Shown here: one piece after another, positions 36,758-39,628 of the stretch
Numbering within the stretch: position 1 is the first letter of the stretch
How the letters are laid out: each line of letters begins with the position of its first letter
Assembly (NCBI RefSeq): GCF_003334385.1
Contig: NZ_QOWN01000012.1
Source: Escherichia coli
GTDB lineage: Bacteria; Pseudomonadota; Gammaproteobacteria; Enterobacterales; Enterobacteriaceae
Reading direction: 5' to 3' (one strand)
DNA length: 64,000 nucleotides
The notes under the pieces: generated by a model
Databases searched by the model: none
Told to the model about the DNA's origin: nothing
Seen by the model: only the letters and a program-made list of their open reading frames with translations
Position numbers and translations under genes: made by a program

Positions 36758-39628
36758 TTATATTTTTTCCAGCGCAGTGAGTATTTTCTCCGGTGTGAAA
36801 TGCCATTCGCGTAACCAGATGCCGCATGCATCGTGAATTGCGGTAGCAATCGCCGGAGCTGCGCCATTTACACCGATTTCCGAGATCGATTTCGCCCCGA
36901 ACGGGCCGACTTTATCGTCGCTCGGCACCAGCACAGCGCGGAAATCACGCGGAATGTCACCAATTTTCGGTGCGCCGTAACTGCGTAAATCACGCGTTAA
37001 CGGGTGACCTTCGGCGTCATAAATGATCTCTTCGCTCATACTGTGGCCGATAGCACGCAGGGTGGCACCGTAGATTTGTCCCAACGCTAACTCTGGATTG
37101 ACCGGTGTACCGCAGTCCAGCAAGGCGTAGAATTTATCCAGGCGGATTTCACCCGTACGCGTGTTGACGGCAACTTCAGCGAAGTTTGCGCCATACGGGA
37201 AGGCGAAATCAGGCGTGATATAACTGCCAGTTCCCACCAGTGAACCAAAGCCGGTGCCGGTTTCGCCTTTATGGGCAATATCCCCGAAACTAACTTCGCC
37301 TTTCTTGCCGCGCACGACGCCCGGCGTTGCCAGTTGAACATCTGCCACTGGCTCACCCAACATTTGCGCGCCGTGGAACAGAATTTTCTCCCGTAGATTT
37401 TCCGCTGCCAAACGCGCCGCGTTACCCGAGAAGCAAGTACCGGACGAGGCATATGCGCCTTTATCAAACAACGCATGATCGGTATCACCGGAGATAACAT
37501 GCACGTCCTGCGGTGGGCAGTGCAGCACTTCTGCTGCCAGTTTCGTCACTACAGTATCCAGACCAGTACCAATATCCGCACCGCCAGAATGAACGATAAA
37601 GGTGCCGTCCGATTCCAGTTTGATCATGCAGTTAGCCTGATCGATATCCGGGATACCCGATTTCTGCATGATAATGGCGACGCCGCGACCGATGTGCCAG
37701 TCACCATTTTGCGGTTTCGGTGACGACCATTGGATCATCTCGCGACCCTGACGCAGGATCTCTTCCAGTGCACAGCTGGCGGCGGAAGGAACGGAGGTCG
37801 GCGCTTTACCTTCACCGATTGCACCGAGAATTTTCAGCTCTTGCCCTTCGTGTACCCGGTTACGTTCGATAATTTCCAGTTGGTCGATCTGTAACTGTTC
37901 AGCCAGTTCCGCTAATGCCATGGTGATAGCGAAGTTACCTTTCGGTGCGCCATAACCCTGATAAGCACCATTTGGGCAAATGTTGCTGTAGTAGGTGGTG
38001 ACCTGGAAATCGACGTTATCGCACGGATATAACGGCAGCGACAGCGCCGGTCCGTTACACGGTACGGTGAGTGAGTGGTTGCCGTAAGGGCCAGTGTTGG
38101 CGCGGAAATCCATCTTCACTGCCGTCAGGCGACCATCTTTTTTCGCTCCCAGTTTGACGGTGACTTTCGCGACGTGACGAGAGGTGTTAGCAATAAACTC
38201 TTCTTCACGGGTGTAGCGGAACAGTACCGGACGCCCGGTCACGCAGGTTGCCCAGGCGCACACTTCTTCCAGCAGGATGTCCTGTTTGGAACCAAAACCG
38301 CCGCCAACTCGCTCTTTAATGACATGAACTTTATGCTGTTTCATGCCCACGAGGCGCGCGACCTGGCGGCGTAAGTGCCATGGTACCTGGGTGGAGGCGT
38401 GGATAACCAGACGATCGCCGTCCATACGAGTAAAGCAGATATGTGTTTCAGTCGGGCACTGCTGCGCTTGCGTTGAGTTATAGGTTCGCTCAATGATCAC
38501 ATCGGCATCGGCAAAGCCTTTGTCCATATCGCCAATATGACCATGAATACTGGCGGCGATATTTTTGCGAGGGCGAGAACCGATCGGGAAGTTGATGATC
38601 ATATGCTCGCCGCGCTGGGCTGCATGGCTGTTATCGTCTTCCAGAGTATCTGGCGCACCAGCAACATACACCACCGGTTCATCGTGCACGACAGGCGCAT
38701 CTTCCGCCATTGCTTCGTCGATCGACATTACCGGCTTAAGCACTTCATATTCAACGTCGATGAGCTTCAGTGCTTCGAGCGCAATTTCTTCACTTTCTGC
38801 GACGACCGCAGCAACACGATCGCCGACGTGACGCATTTTCTTGCCGAACATACGGCGGTCAAGCGGTGACGGTTCCGGTGCGCTCTGACCACCCGGGGTA
38901 TAGTAGATATCCGGGCAATTCAGGTGAGTAATAACGTGAACGACGCCCGGTAAGGCTTCAGCTTTGCTGACATCCAGATGAGTAATCAGTGCGTGAGCGT
39001 GTGGGCTACGTAACATTTTAATGACGCAGGCGTCAGCCGTTACGCGGTCTTCAACATAGCAGGGTTTCGCCTGCACCATTTTCGCGGCATCAGTTTTAGG
39101 ATAATGCTTACCAATGACTTCTAGGTCGTCACGGAAAGTCGGAGCGATATCAATGGTGGCCTGCGGATTATTTTTACGTGCAACCGCCAGTTCAATGACC
39201 TGATAGTATTGCTGCCAGCCAGCATCGCGGCTGAACAAACCAGAAAGCGCGTCGTCGATCTCTTCGCGGGTAGGTGCGGCGATGCGATCGAGAAGATCGG
39301 TGATAATCAGAGCTGCAGCTGGATCGTTATAACCAGACTGCACCACGCCAACATCAACCATTGCCTGTTGAACCAGACTTAACTCGTTCCATTTGCCCAG
39401 AGATTCTGCGGTACGAATATCTGCCTTCTCTAACTGTGCGGCAATAAGCAAGGACGCGTTAACGATATTACCGTTAAAGATTATTGCGTCAGAACCGGCA
39501 AACCCGAAACCATCATCACTGTTGCGTACAGAGTGCATTCCCATGTTAAACAACAGCTTTTGCACGTTTTCGCCTGGATTAACGGTTAGCTCCTGAGGCG
39601 CGCCATTTAAAGTAAAGTGGATGATCAT
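36758..39628 (-). CDS. xdhD: molybdenum hydroxylase large subunit XdhD with a cysteine-less ferredoxin-like N-domain (956 aa)
   Basis: 956-aa ORF with the aldehyde oxidase/xanthine dehydrogenase MoCo-binding body (GGGFGSK motif). Recognised. Confidence 0.94.
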   Translation of the reverse strand: MIIHFTLNGAPQELTVNPGENVQKLLFNMGMHSVRNSDDGFGFAGSDAIIFNGNIVNASLLIAAQLEKADIRTAESLGKWNELSLVQQAMVDVGVVQSGYNDPAAALIITDLLDRIAAPTREEIDDALSGLFSRDAGWQQYYQVIELAVARKNNPQATIDIAPTFRDDLEVIGKHYPKTDAAKMVQAKPCYVEDRVTADACVIKMLRSPHAHALITHLDVSKAEALPGVVHVITHLNCPDIYYTPGGQSAPEPSPLDRRMFGKKMRHVGDRVAAVVAESEEIALEALKLIDVEYEVLKPVMSIDEAMAEDAPVVHDEPVVYVAGAPDTLEDDNSHAAQRGEHMIINFPIGSRPRKNIAASIHGHIGDMDKGFADADVIIERTYNSTQAQQCPTETHICFTRMDGDRLVIHASTQVPWHLRRQVARLVGMKQHKVHVIKERVGGGFGSKQDILLEEVCAWATCVTGRPVLFRYTREEEFIANTSRHVAKVTVKLGAKKDGRLTAVKMDFRANTGPYGNHSLTVPCNGPALSLPLYPCDNVDFQVTTYYSNICPNGAYQGYGAPKGNFAITMALAELAEQLQIDQLEIIERNRVHEGQELKILGAIGEGKAPTSVPSAASCALEEILRQGREMIQWSSPKPQNGDWHIGRGVAIIMQKSGIPDIDQANCMIKLESDGTFIVHSGGADIGTGLDTVVTKLAAEVLHCPPQDVHVISGDTDHALFDKGAYASSGTCFSGNAARLAAENLREKILFHGAQMLGEPVADVQLATPGVVRGKKGEVSFGDIAHKGETGTGFGSLVGTGSYITPDFAFPYGANFAEVAVNTRTGEIRLDKFYALLDCGTPVNPELALGQIYGATLRAIGHSMSEEIIYDAEGHPLTRDLRSYGAPKIGDIPRDFRAVLVPSDDKVGPFGAKSISEIGVNGAAPAIATAIHDACGIWLREWHFTPEKILTALEKI

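Follow-up and report, generated by a model that had tools for sequence, protein, structure and literature searches.

The xdhD gene of Escherichia coli encodes a molybdenum (Mo) enzyme whose N-terminal domain is laid out like the two-[2Fe-2S] electron-transfer module of xanthine dehydrogenases and contains no cysteine, raising the question of how electrons reach its Mo center. The gene was analyzed in a 64,000-nucleotide stretch of contig NZ_QOWN01000012.1 (assembly GCF_003334385.1), here called the window, where it is complete, occupies positions 36758..39628 on the minus strand, and encodes 956 amino acids comprising, by Pfam, a pseudo-FeS domain, an a/b hammerhead, and two domains that bind the Mo cofactor (Moco). 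The product is 100% identical to the E. coli protein named molybdopterin-dependent oxidoreductase Mo/Fe-S-binding subunit, matches NCBIfam TIGR03313 over profile positions 1-951 of 951 (2122.8 bits, cut-off 1101.9), and scores above the Pfam cut-offs for Ald_Xan_dh_C (108.6 bits), MoCoBD_1 (245 bits), and MoCoBD_2 (230.6 bits). The function of XdhD is already known; the loss of its clusters, with the FeS fold and the flavoprotein partner kept, appears to be unrecognized. In the reading that we consider probable, with some reserve, the N-domain is a cluster-free scaffold and the internal wire is cut; that the Mo center would be reduced directly at the active site is proposed with low confidence.

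The N-domain of XdhD is a homolog of the FeS module without its eight cluster ligands

The original prediction held that the beginning of XdhD (39149-39628, residues 1-160) has the layout of a 2x[2Fe-2S] subunit and has lost every ligand cysteine. Residues 1-150 (39179..39628, minus strand) are indeed a true homolog of that module in sequence and fold, putatively cluster-free and without a thiolate at the eight ligand positions, as indicated by BLASTP, Pfam, PDB alignments, AlphaFold 2 (AF2), and Foldseek. They comprise a β-grasp ferredoxin-like subdomain (approximately residues 1-75) and a four-helix Fer2_2 subdomain (approximately residues 76-150). XdhC, the intact 2x[2Fe-2S] subunit of XdhABC encoded in the same window (56796..57275, minus strand), served as the comparator; its product contains the Cys motifs attributed to it, with all eight ligand cysteines, and BLASTP aligned XdhD residues 1-200 with it at 33% identity over 141 residues (E 5e-22). 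The Pfam scan detected Fer2_2 in XdhD at 47.1 bits against a gathering threshold of 30.3 and did not detect Fer2 (PF00111). The NCBIfam models of the XdhC, PucE, and CoxS types align to residues 2-150 (those of the XdhC type to 2-147), below their full-protein cut-offs, and end-to-end alignments were obtained with small FeS subunits in the PDB, namely nicotinate dehydrogenase 3hrd_D (E 1.9e-17), 4zoh_C, 1t3q_A, and 1rm6_C.

The FAD-proximal cluster II is ligated by four cysteines (Cx4Cx2C...C) of the ferredoxin-like subdomain. This pattern is absent from XdhD, where the corresponding loop (residues 34-59, VRNSDDGFGFAGSDAIIFNGNIVNAS; 39452..39529, minus strand) presents D38, A44, D47, and S59 at the positions of C44, C49, C52, and C64 of XdhC, with D39 at the position of C45. 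The Mo-proximal cluster I is ligated by four cysteines (CxxC...CxC) of the helical subdomain, which are likewise missing. S98 and N101 stand in place of the CxxC residues C103 and C106 in one loop (residues 96-104, VQSGYNDPA; 39317..39343), and S133 and D135 stand in place of the CxC residues C140 and C142 in the other (residues 130-139, GLFSRDAGWQ; 39212..39241), both on the minus strand. The strings on which the prediction relied (NSDDGFGFAGSDAIIF, QSGYNDPAAAL, and AKPCYVEDR) were all found. XdhD has 16 cysteines, the first being C190, followed by 201 and then 238 onward; residues 1-189 contain none. Given how often Cys occurs in the remainder of the protein, the chance of a run of 189 residues without it is P ~0.024; the stronger argument, drawn from the alignments, is that about 35 other fused FeS-Mo relatives carry cysteine at all eight columns.

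The occupation of every ligand position by Asp, Ser, Asn, or Ala argues that neither cluster could be bound by XdhD, and the lack of cluster ligands in the N-domain would cut the canonical wire from FAD through Fe/S II and Fe/S I to Moco. No new conserved Cys motif was found anywhere in the Cys-less proteins of the family and the cysteines of the FAD-binding partner YgfM are variable, which suggests that the clusters are gone and were not relocated; the prediction that the canonical wire cannot run through this domain was thus well founded. No metal or electron paramagnetic resonance data for XdhD were found in the literature searched. A sequence search of the PDB returned no XdhD entry, the closest solved Mo subunit being that of 4-hydroxybenzoyl-CoA reductase (4-HBCR) at E 3.7e-80.

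The predicted fold places the N-domain in its canonical position

A full-length AF2 model of XdhD was built from a 43-sequence alignment and has a predicted local distance difference test (pLDDT) score of 91.9 and a predicted template modeling (pTM) score of 0.92, with blocks of the N-domain at 89-97. A single-sequence model of residues 1-200 (pLDDT 44) was discarded. The N-domain is modeled as a β-grasp subdomain joined to a four-helix subdomain. In a Foldseek comparison with the PDB the top matches are fused FeS-Mo aldehyde oxidoreductases, led by 1sij (E 1.8e-82, TM 0.85/0.89, 992 alignment columns) and followed by 1dgj, with Mo-only subunits reaching a TMq of only ~0.71 and 1rm6 a TMt of 0.90. 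Because fused FeS-Mo structures match best over the whole chain, the N-domain appears to be modeled in its canonical place. The alternative that the N-domain is unrelated to the 2Fe-2S fold finds no support, with alignment and AF2/Foldseek both in favor of homology.

Three ligand states occur across the family

Selecting one genome per species gave 80 loci, and five contigs with metagenomic representatives brought the set to 85, of which 73 include the N-terminal region. Three states are found among these 73 relatives: all eight cysteines, only the four of cluster I, or none. The eight-Cys state is exemplified by Myxococcales (locus L013, 54% identity to XdhD), Terriglobia (L035), Spirochaetaceae (L021 and L026), Elusimicrobia (L031), and many Anaerolineae. 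The cluster-I-only state occurs at 14 loci (L003, L044, L047, L052, L056, L058, L062, L068, L069, L071, L073, L074, L076, and L077), mostly from Anaerolineales or other Chloroflexi, with the cluster II ligands replaced by D-x-D-G/V; where only one cluster is missing, FAD-proximal cluster II is the lost one. The residues at the eight positions of the zero-Cys state read DADS with SNSD and DADN with SNID/SNNA in the XdhD subfamily, and STAD with SSDE and DTDQ with SNDE in Chloroflexi and Acidimicrobiia. In many of the 14 cluster-I-only loci, several kb separate the ygfM-like gene from the xdhD homolog.

An independent search of 1.84 billion representative proteins was also made, in which 43 of the best 150 proteins match XdhC and the ligand columns were tabulated for 39. 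Five of the 39 lack ligand cysteines, with all eight gone in P0121, P0123, P0238, and P0218 and the four of cluster II gone in P0126. These five rank among the closest matches to XdhD, and the other 34 keep all eight. Losses were counted on a neighbor-joining (NJ) tree of the Mo part, rooted with XdhA, under a no-regain rule and with 60 bootstraps, giving eight losses of cluster II (6-11 in the bootstraps) and five of cluster I (3-7 in the bootstraps).

The domain is maintained by selection

Twenty-one full-length Cys-less proteins were compared within the subfamily to which XdhD itself belongs (subfamily A, at least 49% identity), which spans Gammaproteobacteria, Spirochaetia, Clostridia, and Olsenella. 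Residues S37, D38, S46, D47, S98, and N101 are 100% conserved in these orthologs, D39 and F43 reach 95%, and D135 reaches 86%; most non-enteric Cys-less orthologs have Ile at position 133. The conservation of the replacement residues matches that of the cysteines in intact relatives. All 120 of 120 close homologs (at least 75% identity) have SVRNSDDGFGFAGSD or a closely similar motif, with at most a few non-ligand cysteines in the domain. Mean pairwise identities of the N-domain and the Mo part are 0.53 and 0.63 for Cys-less pairs and 0.53 and 0.59 for intact pairs, the same relation in both groups, and the ratio of nonsynonymous to synonymous substitution rates (dN/dS), calculated for one pair of Serratia species, is 0.11 in the N-domain versus 0.055 in the Mo part. 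The N-domain of XdhD is under purifying selection and is not decaying. A pseudogene or an annotation artifact was also considered and rejected, as thousands of E. coli sequences share the identical, intact open reading frame (ORF), which is under purifying selection and yields an active product. In one Cys-less subclade (L014, L015, L020, L024, and L034) the second of the cluster II ligand positions is occupied by a single cysteine (DSDDAEGFCGSD). This residue, whether relic or reversion, would be insufficient alone for cluster binding.

The FAD-binding subunit YgfM (259 amino acids) is encoded by ygfM at 39625..40404 on the minus strand and is identified by Pfam FAD_binding_5 and by TIGR03312 (489.7 bits, cut-off 241.5). 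Its stop codon overlaps the xdhD start by 4 bp (ATGA), and a YgfM-type gene lies directly upstream in 24/24 Cys-less subfamily-A loci. The E. coli protein retains the FAD motifs FAGGS and RNQSTIGGE, and the signatures xAGG(T/S) and RNxAT(I/V/L)GG are kept by YgfM-type proteins in all three ligand states. The partners of Cys-less proteins have 0-7 cysteines per ortholog, none of which is conserved. A YgfM-type subunit of only ~230-240 amino acids is found in a subclade from Clostridia and spirochetes (L001, L016, L018, L019, L022, L025, L027, and L032), with ~30 residues gone from the C-terminal CO_deh_flav_C domain and the FAD motifs intact, which may reflect further erosion of the flavoprotein. 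Some E. coli assemblies contain a YgfM-XdhD fusion (P0007, 1215 amino acids; 43 member sequences), in which a stretch of 17 frameshifted residues links YgfM residues 1-242 to full-length XdhD. This fusion is probably a one-base indel or an assembly error at the ATGA overlap.

The published reaction and the electron path assumed for it

Affinity-purified E. coli XdhD co-purifies with a ~30-kDa protein, putatively YgfM, and the XdhD-YgfM preparation with NADH and urate yields 2,8-dioxopurine ('yanthine') (PMC12507026; commentary PMC12990295). The reaction is a dehydroxylation of urate at C6 and the first step of anaerobic uric acid breakdown, after which YgfK reduces 2,8-dioxopurine and SsnA opens the ring (PMC12507026). 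The assay used 10 µM enzyme, 1 mM NADH, and 1 mM urate with a liquid chromatography-mass spectrometry end point and without kinetics; the controls described are omission of enzyme or substrate, no NADH-omission control is described in the portion of the text consulted, and only the YgfK/UacX assays are stated to have been anaerobic (PMC12507026). Transfer from NADH through FAD to Mo is assumed in both 2025 papers, neither of which mentions the missing ligands (PMC12507026, PMC12990295). The terms '2Fe-2S' and 'cysteine' are absent from the main text of PMC12507026 and 'Fe-S' and '2Fe' from its supplement. The missing ligands are also unmentioned in the E. coli molybdoenzyme reviews, in Haft & Self, and in the XdhD/YgfN papers searched, a set that did not cover Xi et al. 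2000. The published XdhD-YgfM models resemble Rhodobacter capsulatus xanthine dehydrogenase (XDH) (PMC12507026), with an AlphaFold 3 interface predicted TM-score (ipTM) of 0.94 (PMC12990295), and would imply a FAD-Mo separation of >25 Å.

The cluster-free state proposed for XdhD and for many relatives from several phyla is in contradiction with the electron path of the current papers and with the NCBI product name. The names 'Mo/Fe-S-binding subunit' (TIGR03313, RefSeq) and 'Fe-S subunit' are probably wrong for the Cys-less members, which make up a large part of the family; one source names the Edwardsiella ortholog 'Fe-S subunit, CoxS/CutS family'. The original prediction had also taken the loss of cysteines as a sign that XdhD acts as a reductase. 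The direction was right, urate being converted to 2,8-dioxopurine (PMC12507026, PMC12990295), and the reason was not, because Clostridium sporogenes XdhAC, which is described with Fe-S cluster-binding domains, carries out the same reaction (bioRxiv 2025.04.24.650524) and because close family members with all eight cysteines sit in similar contexts.

How electrons might reach the molybdenum center

Enroth et al. 2000 are said to have placed the centers of bovine XDH in a roughly linear array with spacings of ~7.8 Å (FAD to Fe/S II), 12.4 Å (Fe/S II to Fe/S I), and 14.7 Å (Fe/S I to Mo), and physiological electron tunneling reportedly needs gaps of ~14 Å or less, a limit attributed to Page et al. 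1999. Without both clusters the gap from flavin to pterin would be >25 Å and tunneling would take hours per electron, so that the scheme NADH -> FAD -> Mo would be unworkable as drawn. With cluster I alone the flavin jump would be ~19-20 Å and might allow slow turnover, which fits the selective loss of cluster II described above.

In the preferred reading, in which the N-domain is a cluster-free scaffold, residues 1-150 would descend from the two-[2Fe-2S] electron-transfer module of the xanthine oxidase (XO) family and would keep both the FeS-type fold and its usual place, with the Mo domains on one side and the FAD subunit on the other, as a structural adaptor by which YgfM is anchored to the Mo subunit. 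The acidic and polar motif of the substituted loops (SDDxxGFxGSD; QSxYN) probably fills the former cluster cavities, where two or three carboxylates per site would leave the net charge about as negative as with a [2Fe-2S](Cys)4 center. The Mo center, which may carry selenium (Mo(Se)), would receive its electrons directly in the substrate funnel, from a diffusible two-electron donor or small redox compound, a step that we propose with low confidence, and the FAD of YgfM would either make this donor from NADH or stay as a structural cofactor. Since the wire seems to have been dismantled repeatedly with the enzyme still selected and active, the chemistry of the family would be independent of it. 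A more general form of this reading, in which XdhD-type urate reductases work without any intramolecular chain, is possible but doubtful. Both half-reactions would then take place at Mo(Se), either by a ping-pong mechanism in which the two-electron donor is diffusible or in the manner of a transhydroxylase, with the FeS fold and the flavoprotein as scaffolds and the cysteines lost stepwise from eight to four to none across phyla.

Several points weigh against the cluster-free, directly reduced enzyme. The absence of clusters from XdhD is read from sequence alone, and the constant retention of YgfM with its FAD motifs, together with the NADH-supported activity, fits a working link from FAD to Mo more naturally. 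Xanthine was considered as the reductant of the Mo site, giving a net isomerization of xanthine to 2,8-dioxopurine, and is disfavored because E. coli ΔxdhA consumes no xanthine (PMC12507026); glucose repression of the gene cluster in that experiment weakens the case against it. The loss counts rest on NJ trees, whose weak topology probably inflates them. When the ligand columns are masked, an N-domain tree unites all subfamily-A Cys-less forms in 46/60 bootstraps, so that subfamily A may represent a single loss; read conservatively, the pattern amounts to three or more independent losses of all eight cysteines, besides several partial losses.

The retention of YgfM leads to the explanation that NADH electrons still travel from its FAD to Mo within the complex along an unusual path, either in a rearranged complex with FAD nearer to the pterin or through a cofactor or metal held without cysteine in the Asp/Ser/Asn pockets. 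The translational coupling of ygfM to xdhD, the co-purification of the two proteins and the product formed with NADH (PMC12507026), the invariant acidic ex-ligand loops with their suggestion of a specific function, and the common cluster-I-only intermediate, in which a jump of the estimated length could still work slowly, all speak for such a route. We nevertheless think it unlikely: the predicted fold and domain placement are canonical, the published models imply the wide FAD-Mo gap, and most Cys-less orthologs have Ile or Ala at site I ligand positions, which argues that site I is not a metal site. In addition, the published activity is a single end point at a high enzyme concentration, with neither kinetics nor, in the portion of the text consulted, an NADH-omission control. 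Considerably less credible still is the proposal that one or two Fe-S clusters are bound after all, through Asp/Ser/Asn or through cysteines donated by YgfM. Asp, Ser, and His are occasionally single Fe-S ligands in other proteins, D38, D47, and D135 lie at ligand positions, and E. coli YgfM has a CPC motif. The remaining ligand positions include Ala44, Asn101, and, in most orthologs, Ile133, which makes non-cysteinyl binding very unlikely, the YgfM cysteines vary as noted above, and we know of no natural Fe-S cluster without any cysteine (thiolate) ligand. We accordingly give this proposal almost no weight.

Electrons could also come from a separate Fe-S protein that feeds the Mo center of XdhD, such as YgfK, YgfS/YgfT/AegA, or the XdhC of a neighboring conventional XDH. 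The original prediction had suggested that the co-encoded YgfK compensates for the lost clusters, and ygfK, ygfS, and ygfT do lie in the same E. coli region. Unbiased clustering of 983 ORFs from the 73 loci gave only YgfK as an enriched neighbor, and in subfamily A only: it lies within 10 kb at 13/24 Cys-less versus 0/5 intact loci (one-sided Fisher P = 0.037, without phylogenetic correction). A full xdhA-xdhC-xdhB trio that includes a bona fide FeS subunit adjoins 16/24 Cys-less versus 0/5 intact subfamily-A loci (one-sided Fisher P = 0.011, shared ancestry uncorrected). Against these associations, YgfK is absent near the Cys-less relatives in Chloroflexi and Actinobacteria and is found near 0/12 Cys-less subfamily-B loci, and no gene family among the 983 ORFs tracks the Cys-less state in both subfamilies. 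The pseudo-FeS domain, judging from the model, would fill the only position within tunneling range of the pterin, and in solved dimers of the XO family the two Mo centers are too far apart for electron transfer between protomers. YgfK is moreover an enzyme of the pathway in its own right, an NAD(P)H-dependent 2,8-dioxopurine reductase that works alone with NAD(P)H (PMC12507026, bioRxiv 2025.04.24.650524). On its co-occurrence and its own demonstrated reaction YgfK was rejected as an obligate partner; in E. coli itself, YgfK or YgfS/T may have some role. Overall, we regard supply by a separate Fe-S protein as improbable.

Comparison with known systems

The aldehyde oxidoreductases (AOR; MOP) of Desulfovibrio gigas (PDB 1SIJ/1VLB) and D. 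desulfuricans (PDB 1DGJ) share with XdhD a single polypeptide in which a FeS-type module of two subdomains precedes the Mo domains. They are the best structural match to the XdhD model, and their N-domains align with that of XdhD in sequence at E 2.6e-7 and 2.5e-6. These enzymes bind two [2Fe-2S] clusters through eight cysteines and work without a FAD subunit, whereas XdhD has none of the eight cysteines and does have a FAD subunit. E. coli XdhABC and R. capsulatus XDH (PDB 1JRO) resemble XdhD in their Mo, FeS-type, and FAD modules and in their purine substrates; XdhABC oxidizes xanthine to urate with the eight-ligand XdhC, whereas XdhD removes the C6 oxygen of urate and would do so without a wire. 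The 4-HBCR of Thauera aromatica (PDB 1RM6), the closest solved relative of the Mo part of XdhD by sequence, is the textbook reductive dehydroxylase of the XO family, with two [2Fe-2S] clusters, an extra [4Fe-4S] cluster in its FAD subunit, and low-potential electrons from ferredoxin. It thus has more wire, and XdhD appears to have none.

Precedents exist for both elements of the preferred reading, in which the Mo center is reduced directly and the FeS fold is a scaffold. Pyrogallol-phloroglucinol transhydroxylase is a Mo enzyme with both half-reactions at the Mo site, and the FAD of acetohydroxyacid synthase is a cofactor module kept without a redox role. Both enzymes still bind their vestigial cofactor, whereas XdhD has lost the ligands themselves, and the likeness is by analogy only. 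Borrelia burgdorferi is regarded as essentially iron-free. It has a virulence-linked xdhACB-like operon whose BB_0555 is predicted with the fold of the FeS subunit (PMC9993122), and BB_0555 may be another cluster-free FeS-fold subunit, in a spirochete. The C. sporogenes enzyme XdhAC (DOPDH) is the functional counterpart of XdhD, interconverting urate and 2,8-dioxopurine in the same pathway with the same fused FeS-type and Mo architecture; unlike XdhD, it is described with Fe-S cluster-binding domains, has no FAD subunit, and does not use NAD(P)H (bioRxiv 2025.04.24.650524). Its activity requires labile selenium, and its physiological donor is given as unknown (bioRxiv 2025.04.24.650524). The related Clostridioides difficile enzyme assigned as XdhD has only 25.63% identity to E. 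coli XdhD (PMC12507026).

Genes surrounding xdhD

Upstream of ygfM lie ssnA and ygfK. The longest ssnA ORF (40455..41849, minus strand) encodes 464 amino acids from a GTG start and shares 64 bp with the end of ygfK; the SsnA models of NCBIfam begin at residue 23-24, and the true start is probably downstream of the GTG, with a small overlap with ygfK or none. The ygfK gene (41786..44884, minus strand) encodes the Fe-S flavoprotein whose 2,8-dioxopurine reductase activity is established biochemically (PMC12507026, bioRxiv 2025.04.24.650524) and which is matched by Pfam Pyr_redox_2 and Fer4_20 and by TIGR03315. Next to it, mocA (minus strand), yqeC (plus strand), and yqeB (plus strand) occupy 45206..48330 and are assigned to cytidylyl-Moco and selenium-cofactor maturation by TIGR03310, TIGR03172, and TIGR03309, respectively, all above cut-offs (yqeC, 45887-46657, 240.9 bits; yqeB, 46705-48330, 417 bits). 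YqeB homologs occur near many members of the XdhD family, and these neighbors make it probable that XdhD is a selenium-dependent Mo hydroxylase (cf. Haft & Self 2008). On the other side of xdhD, ygfT and ygfS (29998..32420, plus strand) encode Fe-S proteins annotated with formate-dependent uric acid utilization (YgfT, NCBIfam PRK12809, 1505.9; YgfS, HydN-like), and it is possible that they are upstream electron suppliers. The conventional xdhABC genes are at 56796..60458 on the minus strand.

Outside E. coli, loci from Spirochaetia and Clostridia place the xdhA-xdhC-xdhB-like trio directly upstream of ygfM-xdhD, often together with a second, divergent ssnA-like amidohydrolase gene. Trio loci include L010 (4300-10001), L012, L014-L016, L018, L019, L022, L024, L025, L027, L028, L032, L034, and L075. 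The association may simply reflect operons in which xanthine oxidation and urate reduction are coupled.

Implications

XdhD-YgfM catalyzes the entry step of urate degradation by gut bacteria, a pathway that is being engineered into probiotics for gout and hyperuricemia. In current papers and in database names it figures as an ordinary Mo/Fe-S/FAD enzyme that draws on NADH. If XdhD has no Fe-S clusters, the NADH path would be physically implausible and the true reductant and the rate-limiting step of the entry reaction would be undefined, which would bear on reconstitution in vitro and on strain engineering. The family would then also provide a natural experiment on an XO-family active site without its wire, in which close relatives with eight, four, and no ligand cysteines can be compared.

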